From Microgenomates group bacterium GW2011_GWC1_46_15 (GTDB taxonomy: Bacteria > Patescibacteriota > Microgenomatia > UBA1400 > UBA12028): a stretch of DNA of 64,000 nt. Shown here in pieces: positions 1,761-62,241 of the stretch. The stretch's first letter is position 1. Every line of letters begins with the position of its first letter. The stretch lies in NCBI GenBank assembly GCA_001002285.1, contig LCLX01000002.1:131827-195826 (forward strand). The letters run 5' to 3'. The translations under genes were made by a program, and so were the position numbers. A model generated the notes under the pieces. The model had not been told where the DNA came from and ran no database searches. It saw nothing but the letters and a program-made list of their open reading frames with translations.

Positions 1761-2618
1761 TTATATAATATTCTTTGCAATCTCAATAACCTCTTCAAGC
1801 GAAAGTGGCGATGGTTTTTGGCTGATTTTTTGCGAACCATTCAGCACCATATGCCGTCCCTTATGGAAAAACCACGAGCCTTTTGTATCTTTTTTCACAA
1901 TTGCTTCATGAAGTGGTGTCAAATCAATTTCTGGAAGCGGCGCTGCTTTTATCCGGATATTTCCTTGCCGCGGATCTTTTTGAATCACAAGATTAAATCC
2001 TTTCATTTGCGCATACCGCAACACCGCCTGGTTTGAGGTCAGTAATCCAATCCCTTTTCCCCATTTCGTTGAAAACTCAATACCTTCATCCATCACTTCC
2101 ATCGCGCGCTTACGCTCTTTCAATGAAGCATAAATGCCATCCAAACACTTCATACCAAACGCTGTTTGCGAATCATCGTCGTGCAGTTGTGTATACTCCA
2201 GCCCATGCAAAATCCAGCGGAGCGTAAACAGGTAGCGCTCGTGCGATGCTTCCGGCCAAAAGTAATCTTCAAAATGGTCATCTATCACGACATACTCCAC
2301 AACCTGCTGAAGCGCCCAGTCATCTTTTAACTCTGGATGGCGGGCAATGAGATCGTCATACACCAGGCTTGCCGCGCTGATTCGTTGCATTCCTCGGTCG
2401 GCTTGATGGTGGTCAAACTCCCCCTCTCCCGTATCAACGTGCGTGACATCCTGTTCACTCACACTATGTTCCTCGCGGACCACAACCGTTAATTTTTTCC
2501 CCGCGTCTACGAACAGAATTTTTGCATCAGCATACTGCTGGGAATCAAACCGTTTGAGAAGCCACACTGAGGTAATCGCATCAATGTCTGGCGCATGATG
2601 AGTGACAAGAAGTTTCAT
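1761..2618 (-). CDS. DHH-family phosphoesterase-like protein
   Basis: Start at MKLLVTHHAPDIDAITSVWLL (DHH motif I/II region) and later FDHH motif; internal ATG chosen over the longer upstream ORF. Confidence 0.55.
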   Translation of the reverse strand: MKLLVTHHAPDIDAITSVWLLKRFDSQQYADAKILFVDAGKKLTVVVREEHSVSEQDVTHVDTGEGEFDHHQADRGMQRISAASLVYDDLIARHPELKDDWALQQVVEYVVIDDHFEDYFWPEASHERYLFTLRWILHGLEYTQLHDDDSQTAFGMKCLDGIYASLKERKRAMEVMDEGIEFSTKWGKGIGLLTSNQAVLRYAQMKGFNLVIQKDPRQGNIRIKAAPLPEIDLTPLHEAIVKKDTKGSWFFHKGRHMVLNGSQKISQKPSPLSLEEVIEIAKNII

Positions 2619-2683
2619 ATAAATATGATACCAGATAGAGGGGGTGCTTGCGCGCAGAAAAGTCTGGTGTATGATATTCCTGT

Positions 2684-2998
2684 TTGAAAAGGAGAAAGAT
2701 GGTAAACAATGAAACACAGCGCAGTCTTCGAGTTCTTGGATTTATTTACGAAACACCGACAGATGAACGTAACAGGAGTGTTCGGGAATGGTTAGAGGGA
2801 CTCCAAGCCCCGCAAGCACCCGGGACAGGAAACCTTACTATAGCTCATTTGAGAGTACTTGAAACCTTATTGAAAACCCAAAGGTTAAAACGTGGAAACA
2901 TAAGGAAACACGATACTGAAGGAACACACTTCCTTGATATTCTCAATGCAAATGGGCAGCTTGTGGCCAGAGCGTTATTGCAGTTTCTTGCGCAATAA
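2684..2998 (+). CDS. hypothetical small protein
   Basis: 104-aa ORF in the only gap between the DHH gene and glmS; no motif. Confidence 0.3.
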   Translation: MKRRKMVNNETQRSLRVLGFIYETPTDERNRSVREWLEGLQAPQAPGTGNLTIAHLRVLETLLKTQRLKRGNIRKHDTEGTHFLDILNANGQLVARALLQFLAQ

Positions 2999-3000
2999 TT

Positions 3001-4770
3001 CTACTTTACCGTCACGCTTTTTGCCAAGTTCCGTGGCTTATCAATGTCCCTCCCCAACCTAACCGCAGTGTAGTACGCCAACAATTGGCCCACTACAATA
3101 TGCGGAAGGAGCGTTGCTTCTTGTGCATCACCGACCGGTAAAAAGATGTCAAATGTCGAGTTCGGCTTTGATGAAATACCGATCATGACTCCACCCCGCG
3201 CGCGAATTTCCATCGCGTTTGCCACCACCGCATCGTACTCTGCATCATCGGGTGCAAACACAACACATGGTGTCCCTTTTTCGATAAGTGCGATCATGCC
3301 GTGTTTAAGTTCTCCACCCGCAAATCCTTCGGCATGAATGTATGCAATTTCTTTCATCTTTAACGCCGACTCCAGCGCCGTGGGATAGGAAAATCCACGG
3401 CCAATATAGAACATATTTTTCTGTTTGGCCAAGAGTGGAATCACCGGCGCAAGATACCTTTTGTAGTACTGCGGAGTAAGGAGTGTTTCTATGGATTTTT
3501 CAGCTTTTTTTAAGATACCTTGTCCATATACACACTTCCTACCAACCGCAGATGCTAACACAATCAAATGGCTAATCATCGCCGTTAGTGCTTTTGTTGA
3601 AGCAACACAAATCTCGGGGCCCGCGGTAAGCGGGATGGTAGTGTCGGCAAGGCGGGATAGTGCCGATCCCATCACGTTCACGAGCGCATCAACATGCATT
3701 CCGCGTTTTTTCATATCCTTTGCGGGTTCAACAACGTCAATCGTCTCACCGCTTTGAGAGATACATAACGCGGTCATGTTTTTAGTAAGTGCGGGTGAAA
3801 TCGCATGATACTCATTCCCCTGCACCGCACTCCATTGTTTTTGTGCAAAATGCGCAAACAGCGCTGTACCCGCCAATGACGCGTAGTACGCCGAACCGCA
3901 TCCTACAAATACTCCCCGTTCCGCATGTTTTATGTGAGCAACAAGTTCTGTCGTGTTTTTCTGCTGTGCAGATTCAGCAATATGCCGTATGACTCTCGGC
4001 TGTTCGTGCATTTCTTTGAGCATAAAATGCGCGTATCCGCCTTTATCAACTTTTTGTGAAGAAAATAGCGCGTCCGCAGTGGCAAGTTTTAACGTTTTTT
4101 TCTTACCTGAAAGTGTATACAGCCGGACAGTGTTATTGCGCACAACTACCATTTCACCATCTTCCAGTGGTCGGACTTTTTCCGCGATCGTGGAAAGTGA
4201 TGCAAGGTCAGACGAGAAAAGATACTCGCTGTCTTTTGTTCTCCCCAAAATCAGTGGTGATCCTGTTTTGGCTGCAACCAATGTGTGGTCTTCAGCAGAA
4301 AACACGAGCACTGCGTTAAGACCGTGCAAACGTTGGAACGCGTGGCGGACTGTTTCAACAAAAGTATTTTTTTGAAGATTTTCCTCAATCACGTGAATCA
4401 ATACCTCTGTATCTGTTTCCGACCTAAATGTGTGTCGTTTTTTGAGTGATTTTTTCAACTCTTGATAGTTTTCGATGATGCCGTTGTGCACAATCGCAAT
4501 CCGTTTTGTACAATCCAAGTGTGGGTGCGCGTTTGCGTCCGTAACTCCACCGTGCGTTGCCCATCGCGTGTGCCCAAACCCCATTGTGCTTTGTGGCAAA
4601 GAATGTACGCTCGCACCGATTTTTCCGGCATGTTTTTCAACCGCAAACGTGTTATGAGTAACAACCGCAACGCCCCAAGAATCATATCCGCGGTACTCCA
4701 GCTGTTTGAGTCCGTTCAGAACGGTGTCCGCTGCATTTTTTTGTTTCGTCACTGCAAAAATTCCGCACAT
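3001..4770 (-). CDS. glmS: glutamine--fructose-6-phosphate aminotransferase (isomerizing)
   Basis: 589 aa starting MCGIFAV (Ntn catalytic Cys2), two SIS domains, ends ...SVTVK; AAGGAG RBS upstream. Confidence 0.95.
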   Translation of the reverse strand: MCGIFAVTKQKNAADTVLNGLKQLEYRGYDSWGVAVVTHNTFAVEKHAGKIGASVHSLPQSTMGFGHTRWATHGGVTDANAHPHLDCTKRIAIVHNGIIENYQELKKSLKKRHTFRSETDTEVLIHVIEENLQKNTFVETVRHAFQRLHGLNAVLVFSAEDHTLVAAKTGSPLILGRTKDSEYLFSSDLASLSTIAEKVRPLEDGEMVVVRNNTVRLYTLSGKKKTLKLATADALFSSQKVDKGGYAHFMLKEMHEQPRVIRHIAESAQQKNTTELVAHIKHAERGVFVGCGSAYYASLAGTALFAHFAQKQWSAVQGNEYHAISPALTKNMTALCISQSGETIDVVEPAKDMKKRGMHVDALVNVMGSALSRLADTTIPLTAGPEICVASTKALTAMISHLIVLASAVGRKCVYGQGILKKAEKSIETLLTPQYYKRYLAPVIPLLAKQKNMFYIGRGFSYPTALESALKMKEIAYIHAEGFAGGELKHGMIALIEKGTPCVVFAPDDAEYDAVVANAMEIRARGGVMIGISSKPNSTFDIFLPVGDAQEATLLPHIVVGQLLAYYTAVRLGRDIDKPRNLAKSVTVK

Positions 4771-14386: not shown

Positions 14387-15220
14387 CTATCCAATAAGGT
14401 CTTTGACAATCGCAATATTTTTCGCATCTGGTCCATCGCCGTTAAATCCTGGGACTTCTAAAATAAGTGGCAAATGGGCAAACTTGGGATTGGTAAGAAA
14501 TTGTTTCATTCTATCTTTGCCAATGCTTCCCTCCCCAACATTTTCGTGCCGATCACGACCACTTTTGAATAAATCGCGCGAGTCATTGAGATGAATGACT
14601 TTGAGTGAGTCCCAAAGATTGAGCGTGGCAATGTCTTTTTCAACAGTTTTTAAATCATATCCCGCACAAAAGGCGTGGCATGTATCAAAACACCACCCAA
14701 GCCGTGGTGAATCAACCGCATCTAAAAGCTCACGGATTTCTTTGAGATCCGAGCAGAGCTTTCCACTCTGCCCCGCGGAGTTTTCAATCAAAAATGTACT
14801 GCTTTTAGGAGTTCCTACCAAAATTTCTTTGAGCGCTTTGACCACCCGCTGCTTACTTACAGCAAATCCTCTCCCTTGGTGACTTCCCAAATGCACAATG
14901 ACTCCGCCGCCGTGAATTCTGGAGTCAAACTCAAGATCATACTTTAAAACACCAATGGATTTTGTGAGAAGATCGGGGTTATCACTCGCCAAGTTGATGA
15001 GATAAAGCGCATGCGTAAAAATTGGACCAAAGTCCTGATCTTTGCAGAACGTAATAAACGTATCGTACGGAAAACTATCAATGGGTTTGCGCGCCCACAC
15101 CCGTGGAGAACCGGAAAAAACCTGCAGGCAGTTCGCGCCCATTGTCATTGCATTCTGCGCTGCCTGAACAAGACCTCCGGCAACGGAAAGATGAGCGCCA
15201 ATTCTTCTTGAGATTTGCAT
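14387..15220 (-). CDS. nfo: deoxyribonuclease IV (AP endonuclease family 2)
   Basis: MQISRRIGAHLS...VIVHLGSH...WCFDTCHAF (xylose-isomerase-like TIM barrel metal ligands). Confidence 0.9.
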   Translation of the reverse strand: MQISRRIGAHLSVAGGLVQAAQNAMTMGANCLQVFSGSPRVWARKPIDSFPYDTFITFCKDQDFGPIFTHALYLINLASDNPDLLTKSIGVLKYDLEFDSRIHGGGVIVHLGSHQGRGFAVSKQRVVKALKEILVGTPKSSTFLIENSAGQSGKLCSDLKEIRELLDAVDSPRLGWCFDTCHAFCAGYDLKTVEKDIATLNLWDSLKVIHLNDSRDLFKSGRDRHENVGEGSIGKDRMKQFLTNPKFAHLPLILEVPGFNGDGPDAKNIAIVKDLIG

Positions 15221-15272
15221 ACTGCTTATTCTAGAGTAGAATATCATTCCGAGCAATTATCTATCTTATAAT

Positions 15273-16178
15273 ATGCAAAAAAATGTCGCTGAATGCATTA
15301 CTCATATAGGCCAGCCCCCATGTTTATCAAAAAAGGATATTCAACGGTTTGGGTTTCTGATTACAGTGTCTTCAGTCCCCGCAATTTCAGAACATCTTAC
15401 GGTTCCGCAAGCAGCTTTAGAATCGTTTATTTCTCACTTTGAAACTGTTTCGCAAACACTTTCTTTTATGTTGCGGTACACAGCAACAAAAAAAGGCATA
15501 CTTCCAAAATTGATGCTGGGAGGAGCTGGTGTAACAAAATTTACAGAAGCACTTGCCCATACATTGGGGTATGCGAATATCAAAGTTGGTACGGAAATGC
15601 GGAGGATTGGAAAATTGTACGGCTTCACTAACGAAAAAGAGTTTGGCGAATTTCTTCAAAACGAAGTGCTCCGTGACCCAACATATGATTATCAACTTGA
15701 CGCCAGTGTTCTTCCACATATTCTTTCGGGAAAAAGGGTTGTTATGGATTCCAAAATATGGGCATTACTACTCGGAAGACCTCAAGCATTTGACCAAAGA
15801 ACTCCATCTTTTGTACACCCCTTTTCTCCATTAAATACTTTCCGCCCCGCACAAATAAACATTGGAGCAACAAACGAGGCACATATAGCGACCAAACGGA
15901 TGTGGAATAGGCAGTTACAGATCGCAACAGAAGCGGGAATCCCTTATGAAAAAAGTCTACATGATGTTGAACAAGAGCAAATGGACCGATGGTTCACTGA
16001 TTTTATTCGCTTTTGGAAAACATATCGTATTCTTTACACACGAGCAAGTTTCATACGCAATTCTCATTATCTTATTAAAACAGATCCGAGTGTTTCTGAA
16101 CTCGCCGATATTGCTCTAGCTCAATTGCGACTTGATTACGGATCTGCTTTTGTAGAGTTTTTACAACAGGTAAGTTAA
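15273..16178 (+). CDS. cytidylate-kinase-like protein with degenerate P-loop (N-terminal extent uncertain)
   Basis: LMLGGAGVTKFTEALAHTLGYANIKVGTEMRRIG aligns with Cmk IDGPAGSGKSTVAKALAEALGY..DTGAMYRA, but the Walker A Gly-Lys-Ser is replaced by VTKF. Confidence 0.4.
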   Translation: MQKNVAECITHIGQPPCLSKKDIQRFGFLITVSSVPAISEHLTVPQAALESFISHFETVSQTLSFMLRYTATKKGILPKLMLGGAGVTKFTEALAHTLGYANIKVGTEMRRIGKLYGFTNEKEFGEFLQNEVLRDPTYDYQLDASVLPHILSGKRVVMDSKIWALLLGRPQAFDQRTPSFVHPFSPLNTFRPAQINIGATNEAHIATKRMWNRQLQIATEAGIPYEKSLHDVEQEQMDRWFTDFIRFWKTYRILYTRASFIRNSHYLIKTDPSVSELADIALAQLRLDYGSAFVEFLQQVS

Positions 16179-17476
16179 AAAGACTTGGATAAAAATGCTT
16201 TAACTTTACTTTTTATAGTCCGAAGGGTTGCACTTTTTTCCATTTCCACACGAAACTTCTTCACAAACTCCCCTCTTTGTTCTTTTTCCTTGGGCATCAC
16301 AAATGGTCGCACAACTTCAACCACTTGCGCAATCCATTCAGCAATTTTTTCCATATCTTTTTCCTTCATTCCAATCGTGGTAACTGCAGGTGTCCCCAAT
16401 CGCACACCAGAGGGATAGAAGGCTGAGTATGGTTCGTTTGGAATCGTGTTTTTGTTTGCATACATACCGACAATCGCCATGGCATACGCGACTTGCGTTC
16501 CACCACCAAACGCCGAGAAATCCATAATCATGAGATGATTTTCCGTTCCCCCACCCATTAATGTAATTCCGTGTTTTTTAAGCGCGTTCGCCAACGCTAC
16601 CGCATTCTTTACCACTTGTTGACCGTACGTTTTAAACTCCGGCGTTGCCGCTTCACCCAGTGCCACCGCGATCCCCGCCGTTACATTATCGTGCGGACCG
16701 CCCTGCAAACCAGGAAACACTGCCTTATCAATTTTCTCGGCTAGCTTGGGATCTTTGCCTAATCCACGTTCCGTGACCAACAGCATCGCTCCACGCGGCC
16801 CACGTAGCGTCTTGTGGGTGGTGGTCATCACAACATCGGCATACGGCACTGGCGATGGATGCACACCCGCAACAATCAAACCGGCAATGTGTGAAATATC
16901 AGCCAACACAAACGCCCCAACCTCATCCGCAATCTCCGCAAACTCTTTGAACGGCAGGATGAATGGATATGCTGTTGTGCCAATAATCATGAGTTTGGGT
17001 TTATGGTGATGTGCCAGCGCCCGCACCTCATCCAGATCAATGCGCGCATGAGCATTCAAGCCAAACTGGATTGTTTTAAAGTACTTTCCACTAAACGTAA
17101 CGCCCGGGTGGCCGTGTGTGAGATGACCACCACTCGCGAGTTTCATTCCCATGATCGTGTCGCCAGCCTCTAGTAATCCAAACAGTACCGCACTATTGGC
17201 AGGACTCCCACTGTATGGCTGGACATTCGCGTGCGGCACTTTAAATAGGGCGCACGCCCGTTTCACCGCCAAGTCCTCAATCTCATCAATAATGTCATTG
17301 CCTTCGTAGTATCGGCGGTGAGGATACCCCTCCGAGTACTTGTTCATGAGTGGTGAACCAACCGCCTTTCGCACATTTTCAGATGCAAAATTTTCAGATG
17401 GAATAAGCTGAACTCCCTCGCGCTGGCGGCGAGTTTCTTTGTCAATCAGCGTAAAAAGAGGATCGTGAGAAATCAT
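16175..17476 (-). CDS. glyA: serine hydroxymethyltransferase
   Basis: LIPSENFASENV...HLTHGH...TTTHKTLRGPRG PLP-lysine region. Confidence 0.95.
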   Translation of the reverse strand: MISHDPLFTLIDKETRRQREGVQLIPSENFASENVRKAVGSPLMNKYSEGYPHRRYYEGNDIIDEIEDLAVKRACALFKVPHANVQPYSGSPANSAVLFGLLEAGDTIMGMKLASGGHLTHGHPGVTFSGKYFKTIQFGLNAHARIDLDEVRALAHHHKPKLMIIGTTAYPFILPFKEFAEIADEVGAFVLADISHIAGLIVAGVHPSPVPYADVVMTTTHKTLRGPRGAMLLVTERGLGKDPKLAEKIDKAVFPGLQGGPHDNVTAGIAVALGEAATPEFKTYGQQVVKNAVALANALKKHGITLMGGGTENHLMIMDFSAFGGGTQVAYAMAIVGMYANKNTIPNEPYSAFYPSGVRLGTPAVTTIGMKEKDMEKIAEWIAQVVEVVRPFVMPKEKEQRGEFVKKFRVEMEKSATLRTIKSKVKAFLSKSF

Positions 17477-17520: not shown

Positions 17521-18261
17521 TTATGCCAACACCGACTCCACATCGGTCGCGACATACGTGCCGATATCTTCACCAAGCACCGCTTTTTTCAAGTTACCAG
17601 ATTTAAACAGTTCAAATACCATGACCGGCATTTTGTTTTCCATACACATCGCCATCGCGCTGTTATCCATCACCGCGATGTTCTCGTCTTTTAGCACATC
17701 CATAAACTTGAGTGTTTTAAACCGCTTCGCATCTTTGTGCTTCGCCGGATTTTTGTCATATACGCCGTCTACTTTTGTTGCTTTCATCACAACGTCGCAG
17801 TGGAGCTCCAACGCATGAAGCGCTGCACCTGTGTCTGTGGTTACATACGGCACGCCCGTTCCTGCAGCTAGGATCACAACGCGGCCTTTTTCGAGGTGCC
17901 GCAATGCACGGCGGCGGACGAACGGCTCCGCAACTGCTGGCATCGTGAGTGCAGACTGCGCACGCGTAGGAACACTAAGTTTTTCCAGTGCATCCTGAAG
18001 TGCAAGCGCATTCATCACCGTTGCGAGCATTCCCATATAGTCAGCCGTTGCGCGGTCAATTCCACCTTTTTCACCGGAAATTCCGCGGAAAATGTTTCCC
18101 CCGCCAATGACCAGCACTACCTGAACGCCGAGATCGTAAATATCCTTGATTTGTTTTGCCACATCCATTACGGCCATTGGGGAAATACCGTACTCGCGGT
18201 CGCCGAGAAGCGACTCGCCGCCAACTTTGAGGAGGACGCGTTTAAATCTCGGGGATGCCAT
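17521..18261 (-). CDS. pyrH: UMP kinase
   Basis: RVLLKVGGESL...VIGGGNIFRG amino-acid-kinase-fold motifs. Confidence 0.9.
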   Translation of the reverse strand: MASPRFKRVLLKVGGESLLGDREYGISPMAVMDVAKQIKDIYDLGVQVVLVIGGGNIFRGISGEKGGIDRATADYMGMLATVMNALALQDALEKLSVPTRAQSALTMPAVAEPFVRRRALRHLEKGRVVILAAGTGVPYVTTDTGAALHALELHCDVVMKATKVDGVYDKNPAKHKDAKRFKTLKFMDVLKDENIAVMDNSAMAMCMENKMPVMVFELFKSGNLKKAVLGEDIGTYVATDVESVLA

Positions 18262-18303: not shown

Positions 18304-18933
18304 CTATACGTTCAGTTTTTTCGCAACACCTTTCCACACTTGATCCGCAATCTCATCAATTGTTTTCTCCGCGTCAATTGTTATCCACCGCTTGTGGTCG
18401 TTTTTTTGCGCAAGCGTGAGGTATGCGTCACGGACTTTTTGGTGAAACTCGCGTGTTTCCATATCGAGCCGGTCCATCTTGTCTGTTTGTGCCCGCCTGC
18501 CCAGTCCCACTTCAACTGAAATGTCGAGGAGAAATGTGAGATTGGGATATGTGTCTTTTGTCGAAATCGTGTTGAGCTGCTCGATCACATCCACACCAAA
18601 ACCACGGACAATACCTTGGTAAATCACCGAAGAGTCGCGGGTGCGGTCCATCAATACAACTTTCTGCGCCTCGAGGCTTGGTAATACTAATTCGCGGTAG
18701 AGTTGCGCACGCGCCGCCTGAAACAGCAATACTTCTGTTGTGTACGCAATGCCGACATTTTTTGCGGAAAGCACAACATCGCGGATTTGTTCGGAGATGA
18801 CCGTGCCGCCCGGTTCGCGGAGTACGACAACATCAAATCCTTTTTCTGTAAGGTGATCGCGGAGGCGCTTAATTTGAACCGTTTTTCCGGACCCCTCTCC
18901 CCCTTCAAATGAAATGAGAAAACCTTTTTGCAT
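18304..18933 (-). CDS. tmk: thymidylate kinase
   Basis: FISFEGGEGSGKTVQ P-loop and LREPGGT; DRTRDSS lid. Confidence 0.9.
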   Translation of the reverse strand: MQKGFLISFEGGEGSGKTVQIKRLRDHLTEKGFDVVVLREPGGTVISEQIRDVVLSAKNVGIAYTTEVLLFQAARAQLYRELVLPSLEAQKVVLMDRTRDSSVIYQGIVRGFGVDVIEQLNTISTKDTYPNLTFLLDISVEVGLGRRAQTDKMDRLDMETREFHQKVRDAYLTLAQKNDHKRWITIDAEKTIDEIADQVWKGVAKKLNV

Positions 18934-18938
18934 TGCGG

Positions 18939-19650
18939 TTATTGTACCCTACTTGCGACAACCAATGCGAGAAGTGCTCGTGCAATCTGAGGATCAAGTT
19001 GTGTTAATCCAAGAACATGTTTATCTTTTTCTTCAGGAGAAAGGTGGCGTAGCGGCCGAAGGGTTTGTTCAGTTGAGTAATATCTATCCATAATGCTTCC
19101 CTCGCCTTTTATATTTTGAGGAAGCCGATAATATCGCGTGGGTCTATTTCTTTCGTTCTTTTGTATTGTTGCATCTAATGTAGCCCACAATGACACTGGA
19201 TGAGGAATATGATGATAGATGAGTGACGAAAGATGTCTACCAATATTAAGAACATCACGCGGAGCAGAACGTGGACTCATATTTCCTACCATTCCTGTAA
19301 GCACTTCAATCCCATTTGAGGCTCCACCGCTTCCATTAACATTGTGTTGGAGTATATGCGGATCAAGATCTAGGGGTCGCTGACGATAAAAATCACCTTT
19401 AACTAATGTTGTGTAAAGTAAAACAAACCACCATACATCAGCAAACTCTTTTGTAGTTTCTTATTGAAACCAACTCCCTAAAGACTGTTGAATTTTCCGT
19501 GGATCTTCTGGCGTAAACAACGGCATATATGCCAGCCTATCTTTTTTAACCAGCGAACGTCAACGAGTACTTTCTGTATCAAACACTAGTTGCGGTGGAG
19601 TAAAACGAAGAAAAACACTGCGGATAGTATGTTGCGCGGTTAGCTCCGTC
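18939..19650 (-). pseudogene. decayed C-terminal lobe of a Hanks-type Ser/Thr protein kinase
   Basis: Minus-strand frame reads ...ADVWWFVLLYTTLVKGDFYRQRP (subdomain IX DVWS.G..LYEL..G..PF) ... SPRSAPRDVLNIGRHLSSLIYHHIPHPVSLW (subdomain XI DP.kR...evL.HPw); a TAA sits immediately upstream of the DVWW motif, a degenerate AYMPLFTPE (APE-like) lies in another frame, and no room or sequence remains for the N-lobe, HRD or DFG. Confidence 0.3.
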
Positions 19651-19655
19651 GCTTG

Positions 19656-21293
19656 TTACGCGGGGTCTTGTGTGTACGATCTTCCGGCACGAATTGCCTC
19701 TTCTGCTTTTTGCAGTTCCAATCCAATGTACATCATGTGCCCAGGCTCAAGAATGTAGTCCCAATCGGTAATTTGCCACGCAACTTCTTGCGCGGTACGC
19801 CCCTCAAAAATCTTGATCGCCGGTCCGCTGTCCGGCTCAAACAGCGTCGCACGGATAAGGCGGCCAGTATTTTTTGGCATTGTCGGTAATGTTTTTGCCA
19901 CTGCGTACGGAATCGACTGCGTTTTGTATTTTTGTGCAAATGCCGGCCATACATACGCTTCGCTTTCTTTAATCACTTCGACAATGACGTTCCCGCGCGG
20001 GTCAAATCCAAAATGCACCGCGGGTGTATACCCCAACTCTTTTTCGTAGTGCTCCATCAACAAATTATCAACCAATCCAAAATCATCGGCATACATGTGC
20101 GCCGAGTGCGTAATCATCGTGAGCGGGCCCATCTTCATCCCAGCAGAGTCGGCGATATCTTTTTGGAGTTTGCGCAGGGCAAACGTGTTGCGCGGCCACC
20201 CATGCACCATGTCCTGCGACCGGAAGTGCGCGGTAAAGAAAAACTTGTTGTCCTGCACCGAACCCAACACCATCACTAAACACGGTGTGTCACCTTTATT
20301 GACTTCGTTCCAATCACGTTTTGGATCCATGGTGGTTGCGACCATTTTTTTGCTGTCCTGGCGGGTTTTGAGCAACTCTTTCATCGCCAAAATTTGATCA
20401 ACTCCAAGATCCACGCGCATACGTTTTCCATAGTTGTATGCAACCCCAGGAATCTGGCGACTCGTGAGTATTTCCGCGTAGTACGCTTCCAACTCAACGC
20501 GCGTAAATGGCAGATACTCGGGAAAATAAATATCGTCAGGATTTTCGTCAGTAATCACCGCGGTCAAGTTTAAAATTTCTTTGAGTGAGTTGTCCTGGCT
20601 GTACCGCGTGTGTTTTGGCCGCCCATATTTTTGAATTTCATTCAACAGATTAAGCCAAGTTTTTGCAACTTTTGGCGCGCTCACACGGAAACCTGTTTGT
20701 TCCGACGGCATCGTACGCACTGTTACGCCCGCCTTTGGAAATGTGCGTGTTTTTGCCGAAAACGGTTCAATTGGAGTCGCAGAAAGTTCTTTGACTTTGG
20801 CGACAAAATCTGTTGCTTGCCTGCCACGCATATCCACCACATCCACAACTTTGCGGAACTCTTCCAACATATCATCCGGAATTTCTTTTTCGATTTCACC
20901 GCGCGCCGCGACAATCTTGCGTGATGTTTCATCAACGCCCTTTTGTTTGAGCATGAGAAGCGAGTGGCCAGAAAGCGACATTTCCGCACCCCATAGGATA
21001 ATGACACGAATATGCGGGTTGGCGAAAATGTTCCGAATCATCGCGTTAATCCCCTGCCCACTGTAGAGATTACCAACCGTGTTATACTCCACATCTTTGA
21101 GCAGTGTTTCAATCACCTGCCGTTCGGTCCACAAACAACACACCGCAACGTGGTGGCGTGGATTCTTGACTTTGAGAATGTCTTTATAGAGGAGGGGCCA
21201 ATTGGAAAGATCAATCGCCAATGATACGGACCGTTTTGATTTTGCTGATTTAGACTGTTTTTTCGGAAGTTTCGTCTTTTTCACATTCGGCAT
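19656..21293 (-). CDS. thyA: thymidylate-synthase (ThyA)-family protein with about 200-aa N-terminal extension
   Basis: C-terminal 340 aa align with ThyA landmarks: YGKRMR (YGKQWR), DQILAMKELLKTRQDSKKMV (DQI..V...LK.DP.SRRII), PCLVMV (PCH nucleophile), FRSQDMVHGWPRNTFALRKL ([21 protein letters not shown]), HSAHMY (GDAHLY); the N-terminal Lys-rich segment plus unknown domain (aa 1-205) has no DHFR motifs. Confidence 0.7.
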   Translation of the reverse strand: MPNVKKTKLPKKQSKSAKSKRSVSLAIDLSNWPLLYKDILKVKNPRHHVAVCCLWTERQVIETLLKDVEYNTVGNLYSGQGINAMIRNIFANPHIRVIILWGAEMSLSGHSLLMLKQKGVDETSRKIVAARGEIEKEIPDDMLEEFRKVVDVVDMRGRQATDFVAKVKELSATPIEPFSAKTRTFPKAGVTVRTMPSEQTGFRVSAPKVAKTWLNLLNEIQKYGRPKHTRYSQDNSLKEILNLTAVITDENPDDIYFPEYLPFTRVELEAYYAEILTSRQIPGVAYNYGKRMRVDLGVDQILAMKELLKTRQDSKKMVATTMDPKRDWNEVNKGDTPCLVMVLGSVQDNKFFFTAHFRSQDMVHGWPRNTFALRKLQKDIADSAGMKMGPLTMITHSAHMYADDFGLVDNLLMEHYEKELGYTPAVHFGFDPRGNVIVEVIKESEAYVWPAFAQKYKTQSIPYAVAKTLPTMPKNTGRLIRATLFEPDSGPAIKIFEGRTAQEVAWQITDWDYILEPGHMMYIGLELQKAEEAIRAGRSYTQDPA

Positions 21294-21445: not shown

Positions 21446-21793
21446 ATGCTCACCCCTCAGGACCTCAATGATATTCGCCAGATTGTAACCCCGATCGTAA
21501 CTGAACAAGTCGGATTGTCAGAGAATCGGCTTCGAAAGGATATTGTTTCCTCGATTGCTTCTTCTGAAGGAAAACTGCATAAAGAGATTGTTGCTTCCGA
21601 AGAGAAACTTCGAGGCGCAATTGTTGCTTCCGAAGTTAAACTCCGTAAGGAAATTGTTTCTAAAATCCGATCGGAACATCAAAGAACCAGAACAACAATC
21701 AATGAAGTAACTGGGTTTTTTGACAGGATCGTAGTTGGGCACGACACAAAGTTTAAGAAACTTGAGCACTATCTTGGGATTTCATTGTCTTAG
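21446..21793 (+). CDS. hypothetical protein with three 11-aa amphipathic repeats
   Basis: EGKLHKEIVAS / EEKLRGAIVAS / EVKLRKEIVSK encoded by 33-bp tandem repeats. Confidence 0.4.
   Translation: MLTPQDLNDIRQIVTPIVTEQVGLSENRLRKDIVSSIASSEGKLHKEIVASEEKLRGAIVASEVKLRKEIVSKIRSEHQRTRTTINEVTGFFDRIVVGHDTKFKKLEHYLGISLS
21566..21664 (+). repeat. 3 x 33-bp tandem repeat inside the CDS (coordinates +/-2)
   Basis: gaaggaaaactgcataaagagattgttgcttcc / gaagagaaacttcgaggcgcaattgttgcttcc / gaagttaaactccgtaaggaaattgtttctaaa. Confidence 0.7.
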
Positions 21794-21805: not shown

Positions 21806-22366
21806 TTACTTTTCAAAATCCATCCAAATTTTGGATGGCGTTGGCGGATCCTGATCCTGGTATTTGTTTGAAGATTTCGCGTAATTCACATCAACCGGCG
21901 AACTCATCTGCAAAAAGGCGATCTGTGCGACCCGCATGCCCGCGTAAATTTTAATCGGGATATTACTGATGTTACTCATTTCAAACGTGAGGTATCCGGA
22001 AAATCCAGGTTGTACAAAACTCGCGGTGGCGTGAATGATCAACCCAATGCGGCCAAGCGAAGAACGACCTTCCAACAAACCGATCAAATCATTGGGAAGC
22101 GTGATTACCTCCCCCGTTGAACCAAGCACGAATTCGCGTGGATGAATCACGATGGACCCGTCTTTTGCACTTGCCTTCACAAGCTCTGTCACATCAAATG
22201 GAACTTTCACATCAATATGTGTGTGAGAGTTATTACGGAACACGCGGAAGTTTTCGTGGAGCGTGAGATCAATCGCCGCAGGGCGGATATGCTCGTCTTT
22301 AAGCGGATTAATAACAATTTTTTTCTGATTGAGATACGCACGGATGTCGCGGTCGGAAAGAACCAT
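21806..22366 (-). CDS. dcd: dCTP deaminase
   Basis: MVLSDRDI...PAAIDLTL...dUTPase-fold motifs GRSSLGRIGL and GFSGYLTFE. Confidence 0.85.
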   Translation of the reverse strand: MVLSDRDIRAYLNQKKIVINPLKDEHIRPAAIDLTLHENFRVFRNNSHTHIDVKVPFDVTELVKASAKDGSIVIHPREFVLGSTGEVITLPNDLIGLLEGRSSLGRIGLIIHATASFVQPGFSGYLTFEMSNISNIPIKIYAGMRVAQIAFLQMSSPVDVNYAKSSNKYQDQDPPTPSKIWMDFEK

Positions 22367-22423
22367 AGGGGCATAGTACCAAGGGCGTACGCGAAAAGCA
22401 ACGGAAGATTGTGCCATGAAAAA

Positions 22424-56917: not shown

Positions 56918-56991
56918 CGGGGCTGCCAGGGCTCGAACCTGGAAACTAACGCTTTTGGAGAGCGCTGTGCTACCAATTACACCACAGCCCC
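56918..56991 (-). tRNA. tRNA-Trp (anticodon CCA)
   Basis: Cloverleaf GGGGCTG...CAGCCCC acceptor, D-arm GTGT/AATTGGTA/GCAC, anticodon loop CTCCAAA, T-arm CCAGG-TTCGAGC-CCTGG. Confidence 0.85.
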
Positions 56992-58669: not shown

Positions 58670-58741
58670 AGCCATCTCAGGGATTCGAACCCTGGACCTG
58701 CTGTTTACAAAACAGCTGCTCTACCGCTGAGCTAAGATGGC
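58670..58741 (-). tRNA. tRNA-Thr (anticodon TGT)
   Basis: GCCATCT acceptor paired with AGATGGC, anticodon loop TTTGTAA, T-arm CAGGG-TTCGAAT-CCCTG. Confidence 0.85.
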
Positions 58742-61441: not shown

Positions 61442-61461
61442 TGCCAGGTGTAGGACTCGAA
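61382..61461. repeat. 21-nt direct repeat gtgccaggtgtaggactcgaa (61382-61402 and 61441-61461) = duplicated 3' end (T-arm + acceptor) of tRNA-Tyr
   Basis: The second copy is the genuine tRNA 3' end; the first copy cannot form a T-stem (GGGGG vs CCTAC). Confidence 0.6.
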
Positions 61462-61524
61462 CCTACGTAGGCTTAAGCCACCTCTTTTACAGAGAGGTCT
61501 CGTTGACCGCTTGAGTAACCTGGC
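61442..61524 (-). tRNA. tRNA-Tyr (anticodon GTA), type II with long variable arm
   Basis: GCCAGGT/ACCTGGC acceptor, 3-bp D-stem, anticodon loop CTGTAAA, variable hairpin GGCTTAAGCC, T-arm GTAGG-TTCGAGT-CCTAC. Confidence 0.85.
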
Positions 61525-61566: not shown

Positions 61567-62184
61567 ATGAAAAATAATCATAAACCTTCAAAAAACACTC
61601 TTCTTTCTCTCTATAAAGAGGGTAAATCTATGGTTGATATAGCAAAACTACTCAAATGTTCTGAACACAAAATCGTGTACTGGATGATGAAATACCACAT
61701 TGCGCGCAGATCAAGAAGTGAGGCCTCTTATGTCCAACAAAATCCAAACGGAGATCCATTCAATATACAAACATCACTTTCTCCCGAAGAACAAAAAATA
61801 TTTTGGTTAGCTTTAGGGATCTATTGGGGAGAGGGTAATAAAGTTTCTCCACATGTTGTAAAAGTAACAAATACAGATCCCGATCTACTACGTATATTTC
61901 AAAGTTTCCTGACCAAAATTTGCCACATTTCTCCCGAAAAAATTTCATATAGTATTGTCGCTTTTCATGACAACAATTCCACTGTTGTGCGGTCGTATTG
62001 GGCAAATCAGCTACAGATTTCTCCAGAAAAATTTGGTAAAATCGTTCAGATTCCAACACAAGGCCGTGGAACATACAAGAAAAAATCGATGTATGGCGTG
62101 TGCATGATTTCTGTGAGCAACATCAAATTAAAAGCTTGGATATTGAAACAGCTTCAAAATTTGAAAAATGCCTGGGTAGTTTAG
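61567..62184 (+). CDS. HTH + LAGLIDADG-like homing-endonuclease-like protein
   Basis: N-terminal HTH (LLSLYKEGKSMVDIAKLLKCSEHKIVYW) then FWLALGIYWGEGNK (LAGLIDADG-like) and TNTDPDLLRIFQSFL; stop codon lies 13 nt inside the tRNA-Thr gene. Confidence 0.35.
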   Translation: MKNNHKPSKNTLLSLYKEGKSMVDIAKLLKCSEHKIVYWMMKYHIARRSRSEASYVQQNPNGDPFNIQTSLSPEEQKIFWLALGIYWGEGNKVSPHVVKVTNTDPDLLRIFQSFLTKICHISPEKISYSIVAFHDNNSTVVRSYWANQLQISPEKFGKIVQIPTQGRGTYKKKSMYGVCMISVSNIKLKAWILKQLQNLKNAWVV

Positions 62185-62241
62185 TGGCAAAACAAGCCCT
62201 TGGTAAGGGCTAGAGCGCGGGTCCGATTCCCGCTCCAGGCT
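62170..62241 (+). tRNA. tRNA-Thr (anticodon GGT)
   Basis: GCCTGGG/TCCAGGC acceptor (one G-U), D-arm GTTT/AGTGGCA/AAAC, anticodon loop TTGGTAA, T-arm GCGGG-TCCGATT-CCCGC. Confidence 0.85.

Follow-up and report, generated by a model that had tools for sequence, protein, structure and literature searches.

We identified in the genome of Microgenomates group bacterium GW2011_GWC1_46_15 a gene for a protein of 545 amino acids (aa) that is very probably a thymidylate synthase (TS) producing thymidine monophosphate (dTMP), as predicted from its sequence. The gene lies on the reverse strand of the 64,000-nucleotide stretch that we analyzed (contig LCLX01000002.1, positions 131,827 to 195,826; hereafter, the window). 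Judging by profile matches, the protein is composed of three domains: an MtrA-like domain (residues 30-175), a ThyA core (residues 205-420) and a DUF4346 domain (residues 429-545). We predict a dTMP-forming role because the catalytic residues of ThyA are intact, the gene clusters with dcd, tmk and glyA, and relatives of the protein are fused to dCMP deaminase and to thymidylate kinase (Tmk).

An intact gene for a protein of three domains

The reading frame runs uninterrupted from start to stop (Table 1), and an in-frame stop two codons 5' of the ATG leaves no further upstream extension. Hence there is no trace of the frameshift or stop that the original prediction, made from the letters of the sequence without database searches, had named as a possible source of the amino-terminal region. 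The protein is 100% identical to one from a Candidatus Pacebacteria metagenome-assembled genome (MAG) and is found in identical form on 12 contigs, where it carries the names "hypothetical protein" or "Thymidylate synthase". The gene is therefore real and intact and no accident of assembly. A merger of two or three genes during assembly or annotation was also considered and is ruled out by the intact open reading frame (ORF) and by a domain order kept in hundreds of independent genomes and viral contigs. All three Pfam domains are common to the top 120 homologues of the 545-aa protein. An AlphaFold2 model of the full-length protein (mean predicted local distance difference test, pLDDT, 77; predicted template modeling score, pTM, 0.55) consists of three folded units with low-confidence linkers at residues 189-199 and 423-427.

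The original prediction had described a two-part protein, with a ThyA part at the carboxy terminus behind an amino-terminal domain of unknown function. The fusion of TS to extra sequence other than dihydrofolate reductase (DHFR) proved genuine, with no match to DHFR_1, and searches of the amino-terminal region in Pfam and NCBIfam agreed that it has no DHFR, dCMP hydroxymethylase or GRKT-type signatures. The layout itself had to be redrawn. The TS part is central (about residues 205-420) and its HSAHMY motif stops 145 residues short of the carboxy terminus, a third domain (PF14251) at the carboxy terminus had been overlooked, and the amino-terminal region matches a known domain type, the MtrA-type Rossmann domain. 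The motifs quoted in support of the prediction are all present (MPNVKKTKLPKKQSKSAKSKRS at residues 1-22, HHVAVCCLW at 47-55, VDQI...DSKK at 298-316, HFRSQDM at 356-362 and HSAHMY at 396-401), but the nucleophile motif given as PCH reads PCL (TPCL, residues 336-339).

The central domain carries the catalytic residues of ThyA

The best match to the central domain is TIGR03283, the methanogen-type TS family, which we take to be the type of M. jannaschii MJ0757. It covers residues 205-405 (E = 2.1e-35) with 122.1 bits, below the curated cut-off of 174.55. PF00303 (Thymidylat_synt) matches residues 288-414 (E = 3e-11; 43.4 bits, gathering score 24.3), and the model of canonical ThyA, TIGR03284, gives 29.7 bits, far under its cut-off of 108.35. 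With the first two matches far above chance, the ThyA identity proposed for this part of the protein holds. An hhalign comparison of the core with Escherichia coli ThyA returned a probability of 97.4, the alignable part being E. coli residues 87-239 only. The E. coli ThyA and FolA queries behaved as expected, with 49% and 41% identity to clear orthologues, respectively.

The residues expected in a ThyA active site are present and nearly invariant. In a 456-sequence alignment (effective number of sequences, Neff, 181), to which the conservation figures given here refer, the catalytic set (Y288, C338, R358, S359, D361, N369, H399 and Y401; E. coli equivalents in Table 1) is conserved at 0.92-0.99, with the predicted nucleophile Cys338 at 0.99 and the group of Cys338, the general-base Tyr (Y288), D361 and N369 at 0.94-0.99. 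E239, the likely equivalent of E58, is conserved in 93% of the sequences. Of the ThyA residues that bind the phosphate of deoxyuridine monophosphate (R166, S167, R126'/R127' and R21) or contact its 3'-OH (H207 and Y209), the protein has R358, S359, H399 and Y401, and it has K315/K316 in place of R126/R127; the equivalent of R21 is not alignable, and K227 (Lys in 53%) is a candidate for it. In this enzyme fold, an Asn at the position of N177 specifies uracil, and cytosine-specific relatives have an Asp there. On this criterion, Asn369 indicates a uracil rather than a cytosine substrate.

The core shares its fold and catalytic residues with canonical ThyA of the E. coli type but differs in having PCL in place of PCH and KK in place of R126/R127. 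Further, the helix region at the amino terminus of canonical ThyA that binds the folate tail and the carboxy-terminal tail that closes the active site have no detectable counterpart. The core is minimal and ends just past the H-x-Y motif: the TIGR03283 profile (201 positions) stops at residue 405, and a standalone short TS encoded in one related locus (L015) terminates directly after SAHIY. The methanogen-type enzymes have this same minimal fold and the same catalytic residues, but they are standalone proteins of about 200 aa, whereas the protein described here has 545 aa, two added conserved domains and a score under the cut-off of their family. Archaeal thymidylate synthases are experimentally uncharacterised and their cofactor specificity is unclear (PMC9931769, PMC9012536). 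The nearest solved structures, identified with Foldseek, are likewise small TS-fold proteins from phages, the AfhB dCMP hydroxylase/FAD-bound monooxygenase entries 9IQU and 9IQC (E = 2e-13; TM(target) 0.79). They share about 20% identity with the core and act on dCMP with flavin, whereas the core keeps the uracil-specifying Asn and the Cys, Tyr and Asp of ThyA.

Gene neighborhood and fusions point to dTMP as the product

The TS gene is part of a co-directional array in the window that comprises glyA, a gene of the UMP kinase type, tmk, the TS gene and dcd, followed by topA and dprA (Table 1). According to the families of their products, dcd is predicted to supply the precursor of deoxyuridine monophosphate (dUMP), tmk to consume dTMP, and the serine hydroxymethyltransferase (SHMT) encoded by glyA to be the source of 5,10-methylene-tetrahydrofolate. 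The same functions recur elsewhere. In a survey of 80 related genomic loci (flanks of 6-10 kb), the 88 same-strand ORFs within 300 bp of the TS gene included 13 with DCD, 8 with DCD_N, 12 with thymidylate kinase, 10 with dUTPase, 3 with thymidine kinase and 2 with deoxynucleoside kinase domains. Two relatives are fused to the enzymes on either side of TS in the pathway: P0179 joins the three-domain protein to dCMP deaminase, just upstream, and L066 joins it to thymidylate kinase, just downstream. Other Tmk fusions adjoin the three-domain gene as well, among them a 451-aa tandem Tmk-Tmk (L073:6785-8140) and two products (L002:3954-5075 and L003:6175-7278), each about 370 aa long, in which Tmk is preceded by an unassigned domain of about 150 aa.

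Additional TS-type genes were found within 6 kb of the three-domain gene in 6 of the 80 loci. Locus L047 has canonical ThyA and FolA genes beside it, and L034 also has both, with FolA fused to SHMT. The short TS of L015 is a bona fide one (TIGR03283, 200 bits), and L057 encodes a 763-aa Tmk-ThyX-like fusion (2388-4679). L048:486-1694 and L059:7823-8776 encode divergent TS-like paralogues (402 and 317 aa, respectively) whose TIGR03283 scores of 70-78 bits are far below the cut-off. The fusion in L034 (4254-6071), from the Woesearchaeota MAG contig JAAOYC010000003.1, is a 605-aa DHFR-SHMT protein whose DHFR part (residues 4-156) is 33% identical to E. coli FolA. Its gene sits between the canonical thyA and the three-domain TS gene, which is followed by tmk. 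Such a protein covers two steps of the three-step thymidylate cycle and is unusual.

The presence of additional TS-type genes in these 6 loci would suit an enzyme that carries out a different reaction at C5 of the pyrimidine, such as a dUMP hydroxymethylase. Phage homologues of TS often make modified bases, and 104 relatives of the three-domain protein are on viral contigs. Consistent with such a role, the structures that rank nearest to the core include a dCMP hydroxylase and MilA, a CMP hydroxymethylase, and the scores of the protein fall under all of the TS equivalog cut-offs. Yet the uracil-specifying Asn369 is conserved at 0.98, the Tmk fusion and the pervasive adjacency of tmk point to dTMP as the product, and the gene is the sole TS homologue within the window. 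Nor do we know of any hydroxymethyl-uracil DNA in the candidate phyla radiation (CPR) or in Chloroflexi. We therefore consider a different C5 enzyme very unlikely and favor a role in dTMP formation.

The window contains no second TS homologue and no ThyX-like or DHFR-like sequence. Near the TS gene, no riboswitch match to Rfam was obtained even at E<=1, and a scan for promoters and terminators stayed at background level. The gaps that flank the gene contain two ORFs without Pfam matches. One, in the 510-bp gap between dcd and TS (21446-21793, (+)), spans 115 aa, may or may not be a gene, and repeats a unit of about 11 residues internally (KLRKDIVSSIA / KLHKEIVASEE / KLRGAIVASEV / KLRKEIVSKI). 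The other (18939-19304, (-)), of 121 aa and with a GTG start, lies in the otherwise unannotated 720-bp gap between TS and tmk. More distant features of the window include a 301-aa ORF without a Pfam match (15273-16178, (+)) between glyA and an AP_endonuc_2 gene (14387-15256, (-)) for a xylose-isomerase-like TIM barrel, and four tRNA genes within about 5 kb (56918-56991, (-); 58670-58741, (-); 61442-61524, (-); 62170-62241, (+)).

Table 1. Features of the three-domain TS gene, its product and the neighboring genes. Positions are those of the window.
Feature	Position	Strand	Basis
Three-domain TS gene, complete	19656..21293	(-)	Single 545-aa ORF, ATG start; stop codon 19656-19658
Residues 1-27, Lys/Ser-rich amino-terminal tail, probably disordered	21213..21293	(-)	pLDDT ~35
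Residues 30-175, MtrA-like Rossmann domain	20769..21206	(-)	PF04208, NF002126, 5LAA, 5L8X
Residues 176-204, linker with conserved P196-S-E-x-x-G-F motif, leads into TS core	20682..20768	(-)	pLDDT <50 for 189-199
Residues 205-420, minimal archaeal-type ThyA domain	20034..20681	(-)	TIGR03283, PF00303, hhalign, Foldseek
Y288, equivalent to E. coli ThyA Y94			hhalign
K315/K316, equivalent to E. coli ThyA R126/R127			Arg in 70% / 58% of family
Cys338 codon, predicted nucleophile, equivalent to E. coli C146	20280..20282	(-)	TPCLV by translation of 20274-20288 (-)
R358, equivalent to E. coli ThyA R166			hhalign
S359, equivalent to E. coli ThyA S167			hhalign
D361, pterin-/N3-contacting Asp, equivalent to E. 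coli ThyA D169			hhalign
N369, equivalent to E. coli ThyA N177			hhalign; conserved at 0.98
H399, equivalent to E. coli ThyA H207			hhalign
Y401, equivalent to E. coli ThyA Y209			hhalign
Residues 429-545, DUF4346 domain	19659..20009	(-)	PF14251
Residues 443-475, two-helix insertion in DUF4346	19869..19967	(-)	Close relatives only
dcd, dCTP deaminase, upstream of TS	21806..22417	(-)	PF22769 DCD, E = 6.8e-46
tmk, thymidylate kinase, downstream of TS	18304..18933	(-)	PF02223, E = 2.8e-42
pyrH-like UMP kinase (name pyrH read from sequence)	17521..18261	(-)	PF00696 AA_kinase, E = 3.5e-34
glyA, SHMT, 2.2 kb downstream of TS	16175..17476	(-)	PF00464 SHMT, E = 7.2e-141

An MtrA-like domain with a predicted loss of cobalt ligation

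The profile search that had been proposed for the amino-terminal region returned the MtrA family PF04208 over residues 30-173 (E = 1.5e-13; 51.2 bits against a threshold of 25). The closest NCBIfam model is NF002126, a 186-position model of an MtrA subfamily (E = 3.4e-21), and a family profile of the domain matches the cobalamin-bound chain of PDB entry 5LAA with E = 4.7e-23. Structural comparison with Foldseek is consistent with these matches (TM(target) 0.74 to M. jannaschii MtrA, 5L8X). From the profile comparisons, homology of the domain to MtrA is certain. It is homologous over its full length to the Rossmann-type domain of MtrA and of its cytoplasmic homologues (PF04208; 5LAA, 5L8X, 8Q3V) but is followed by the TS core instead of a transmembrane helix. 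The score against TIGR01111 (46-50 bits) also stays below the cut-off of 249.15, and the locus has dcd, tmk, pyrH and glyA rather than an mtr operon.

In MtrA, cobalt is bound by a network of three elements, namely His84 (beta3-alpha3 loop), the Glu54 that partners it and the meander 109-GAIPF[YF]xEN, and residues D17, K52, T53, G57 and N64 hold the nucleotide tail (PMC4915002). We compared these positions by aligning both the query and the family profile to 5LAA. His84 falls in a two-residue insertion that is absent from the three-domain family. Opposite Glu54 the query has S78, where 69% of the family carry Ser; with the family profile, Glu54 aligns to a variable position. The meander segment has lost two residues. 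The tail site differs from the cobalt site in being retained, with G81 (0.98) and N88 (0.89) as the equivalents of G57 and N64. The other most conserved positions of the domain are W55, Y77, R87, D/E104 and R147, and the 456-sequence alignment contains no conserved His elsewhere in it. The pattern suggests that the corrinoid pocket of MtrA is kept as a putative ligand site and that His-on ligation of cobalt is lost.

Two candidate metal-binding features of the domain were rejected. His110 (SLSGHSL), examined as a replacement cobalt ligand, is His in 3% of the family and Gln in two close homologues. The segment HHVAVCCLW, to which a function had been attributed in the original prediction for its Cys and His residues, forms beta-strand 1, and its Cys pair varies. 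The Lys-rich tail had likewise been singled out as a functional feature. We found it in only 5 of 22 close homologues, and it is absent from distant ones; mean pairwise identity in this region is 0.15-0.23, and the disordered stretch of the AlphaFold2 model corresponds to residues 1-24. At the other end of the domain, P196 in the linker is conserved at 0.86.

The true homology to MtrA (5LAA, E = 4.7e-23) and the conserved equivalents of G57 and N64 raise the prospect of corrinoid methyl transfer, with a cobamide carried His-off by the MtrA-like domain and its methyl group passed to the Cys-activated C5 of dUMP, so that neither hydride transfer nor dihydrofolate would be involved. Corrinoid proteins of the His-off type do exist (PMC4915002), and DUF4346 otherwise accompanies MtrA-like proteins and proteins with the dihydropteroate synthase (DHPS)/MtrH fold (pterin barrel), the partners in corrinoid methyltransferase systems. 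However, the deletion of His84, the replacement of Glu54 and the shortened meander, together with the lack of any other conserved His in the domain, argue against a corrinoid cofactor. A methyl-pterin:corrinoid methyltransferase domain is missing from the protein, the SHMT of the cluster produces the methylene rather than the methyl level, and the pterin-contacting Asp361 is kept in the TS site. Further, there is no cobalamin riboswitch near the gene and no B12-related family among the 25 commonest Pfam families of the neighboring genes. We regard corrinoid methyl transfer as highly improbable.

A DUF4346 domain with suggestive links to pterin proteins

The carboxy-terminal domain matches PF14251 (PterinBD-DUF4346) over residues 431-543 (E = 1.5e-13; 51.7 bits against a threshold of 29.6). 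Its near-invariant polar residues are D431 (0.99), H519 (0.97), E526 (0.87), Q542 (0.93) and D543 (0.86). Modeled alone from 34 sequences, the domain folds with confidence (pLDDT 89.7; pTM 0.83) into a small alpha/beta unit. The profile search yielded no sequence relative in the PDB (best E = 1), and Foldseek found no solved fold like it there (best E = 0.38; TM <0.3) and no reductase-like match. The idea that DUF4346 is a diverged carboxy-terminal subdomain of ThyA was discarded (hhalign probability 0.1). The two-helix insertion in the domain is limited to sequences of the Pacebacteria/Microgenomates type with >=60% identity (mean pairwise identity 0.38) and is missing in distant homologues.

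Segments that resemble DUF4346 are also found in families that have no TS. One ends the archaeal DHPS-like family TIGR00284 (positions 437-494 of 497). Another belongs to NF002128, a 390-position model named "MtrA", which has an MtrA-like segment at positions 112-261 and a DUF4346-like segment at 317-370. The TS core of the protein described here lies between both modules. By these model alignments, the pair of MtrA-like and DUF4346 domains recurs without TS, and the association of DUF4346 with pterin and one-carbon (C1) proteins is suggestive.

The architecture invites comparison with the DHFR-TS of protozoa and plants (e.g., PDB 2H2Q), in which TS also follows an alpha/beta domain of about 200 aa and the total length is similar. 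As the original prediction had it, size is alike and content is not: the layout of about 520 aa is shared, but the amino-terminal domain is no DHFR (no match to PF00186 at E<=1), there is a third domain at the carboxy terminus, and the PDB chains of DHFR-TS match through the TS part only (residues 283-403). The likeness could nevertheless extend to function if the MtrA-like domain, with DUF4346, reduced dihydrofolate or, in the manner of ThyX, the exocyclic methylene directly, making the thymidylate cycle self-contained and FolA dispensable. ThyX, which has the same predicted metabolic role, sets a precedent in that it makes dTMP without releasing dihydrofolate, but its fold is unrelated, and neither the protein nor the window has a ThyX signature. 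The pocket residues W55, Y77, R87, N88, D104 and R147 would suit a dinucleotide or a flavin, and DUF4346 offers a conserved cluster of Asp, His and Glu. The structures nearest to the core (9IQC and 9IQU) were deposited with flavin adenine dinucleotide (FAD), so flavin binding is compatible with a TS fold. However, 9IQC and the protein may look alike only because both have a small TS core.

The distribution of FolA is also consistent with a self-contained cycle. The gene cluster contains SHMT and TS and no DHFR, in a window of 64 kb without any DHFR-like sequence, and FolA is adjacent in 0 of 78 loci with the three-domain gene alone versus 2 of 2 with canonical thyA. More broadly, folA was detected in just 54.8% of 4,581 CPR genomes (PMC11974145). 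Against these observations stand the absence, in the alignments that we inspected, of a GxGxxG or flavodoxin-type phosphate loop after strand 1 of the MtrA-like domain, and the lack of any reductase signal in Pfam and NCBIfam or of a reductase-like structural match to DUF4346. In addition, the absence of folA covers only the 64 kb of the window and flanks of about 6 kb. On balance, a self-contained cycle appears unlikely.

Distribution and conservation of the three-domain family

An exhaustive HMMER scan of 1.84 billion cluster representatives produced 1,951 matches at E<=0.001, of which 264 were at E<=1e-30. The best 150 are mostly 450-530 aa long and span the MtrA-like and TS parts. Among 32 diverse representatives (26-57% identity), Pfam detected DUF4346 and TS in all 32 and MtrA in 29. 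Scanning one genome per species, we found a relative in at least 591 species genomes. The best 80 of these belong to CPR/Patescibacteria (Microgenomates, Gottesman-, Woyke-, Kerfeld-, Wolfe- and Paceibacteria, and Saccharibacteria), Chloroflexota, the DPANN lineages Woese-, Nano-, Aenigm-, Micr- and Pacearchaeota, and one Planctomycetota MAG. Thus, the fusion is shared with related genomes, as hundreds of full-length homologues attest. Two longer proteins, P0225 (837 aa) and P0232 (786 aa), have two separate matches to DUF4346 and none to MtrA in Pfam, and may represent a duplicated or rearranged architecture.

The family extends to viruses. The 104 relatives on viral contigs of IMG/VR are nearly all full length (443-541 aa) and adjoin genes for class I ribonucleotide reductase, dCMP deaminase and replication proteins. 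A viral copy compared with NCBIfam still has a recognizable MtrA-like part. A tblastn search of 50,697 GenBank phage records with a viral representative retrieved no match. The viral contigs (L081-L160) are up to 200 kb long, some of them of jumbo-phage size, and have the TS gene near those for a DNA polymerase III beta clamp and a Mu-type portal. In two loci, IS605/Cas12f-like TnpB genes are close to the viral three-domain TS.

Averaged over all pairs of the diverse set, sequence identity amounts to 0.33 in the amino-terminal domain, 0.35 in the TS core and 0.34 in the core of DUF4346. Because the flanking domains are as conserved as the core, this comparison of sequences suggests that they are integral parts of the protein and not linkers. 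The long linker that had been allowed for in place of an amino-terminal domain does not fit these values. They also bear on the notion that the flanking domains are allosteric or regulatory appendages, which would sense nucleotides such as dTTP or dCTP or mediate oligomerization outside catalysis and cofactor binding. In this pathway, dTTP and dCTP are the classical regulators of two neighboring enzymes, dCTP deaminase and dCMP deaminase. The flexible linkers would be in keeping with regulatory domains that move, and the conserved Rossmann-like pocket is the site that in MtrA receives the nucleotide loop of the corrinoid. But modules with a purely regulatory task are not usually conserved as strongly as a catalytic core across bacteria, archaea and viruses, as these domains are, and phages retain all three domains. 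A regulatory function is, for these reasons, quite unlikely.

A predicted ThyA-type mechanism with flanking cofactor-handling domains

We propose that the protein converts dUMP to dTMP by ThyA-type chemistry within the dcd, TS and tmk pathway cluster. Cys338 would attack C6 of dUMP, and a reduced pterin would bind next to Asp361 as the one-carbon donor, most likely the 5,10-methylene-tetrahydrofolate made by the co-clustered SHMT. The MtrA-like and DUF4346 domains may act jointly to bind and position this donor, or its tail, over the active site. They would then stand in for the amino- and carboxy-terminal elements of canonical ThyA for folate binding and closure that are missing from the core, and the pocket inherited from MtrA would have ceased to accommodate a His-ligated corrinoid. 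As a whole, a ThyA-type TS with a flanking cofactor-handling module is our best explanation, although we consider the case for it evenly balanced. That the flanking domains serve in cofactor binding rather than in new chemistry is a tentative proposal, with chances somewhat short of even.

Several observations weigh against this proposal. DUF4346 has no solved structural relative, and the Pfam name PterinBD-DUF4346 is a mere label, with pterin binding by the domain only inferred. The placement of the domains relative to each other is uncertain, given the pTM of 0.55 and the low-confidence linkers of the full-length model. Standalone short archaeal TS apparently works alone, so the flanking domains would not be strictly needed to complete the fold. 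The protein also scores under the curated cut-offs of all NCBIfam TS equivalogs. Finally, the further TS-type genes within 6 kb in 6 of the 80 loci amount to a redundancy that one would not expect in genomes as small as about 1 Mb were the protein just another ThyA, and the company of FolA differs between canonical thyA (2 of 2 loci) and the three-domain gene alone (0 of 78).

To our knowledge, ThyA and ThyX are the only two known classes of TS. The three-domain protein could represent a third mechanistic class, in which the MtrA-derived and DUF4346 domains would equip a ThyA-fold core with a cofactor chemistry unlike that of ThyA and ThyX. If so, the pterin might be re-reduced within the protein, making FolA unnecessary, or a bound cofactor, for instance a His-off corrinoid, might deliver a methyl group. 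Three observations would then make sense: folA never accompanies the gene, some genomes encode ThyA or ThyX in addition to it, and the minimal archaeal ThyA has withstood biochemical characterization. We nonetheless place it on the unlikely side.

Significance of the three-domain family

Public pipelines already label members of the family "thymidylate synthase" or "DUF4346 domain-containing protein". For this reason, the sequence family is not new; the three-domain form of ThyA is widespread and uncharacterised. Our search of 8 million open-access texts, with subscription literature outside its scope, found no paper with DUF4346, PterinBD, MJ0757, MJ0107 or slr0651, or with a relevant pairing of MtrA and thymidylate synthase.

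Thymidylate synthesis is essential for DNA, and both ThyA and ThyX are drug targets. The three-domain protein is the apparent thymidylate synthase of much of uncultivated life, including CPR/Patescibacteria, DPANN, many Chloroflexota and some of their uncultured viruses. Yet two thirds of the conserved protein are flanking domains of inferred role that are conserved like the core. What they do bears on the folate/thymidylate cycle and on the need for DHFR in tiny organisms that scavenge cofactors. The family also touches on the open question of which cofactor the minimal archaeal ThyA core uses (PMC9931769, PMC9012536). There is a practical side to it as well, as the MtrA-like domain could pass as the methanogenesis marker mtrA in metagenome surveys. 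The predicted role of the enzyme is an ordinary one; the accessory domains, obligatory and equally conserved, could hide new cofactor chemistry. Resolving how the three-domain TS works would give DUF4346 its first function.

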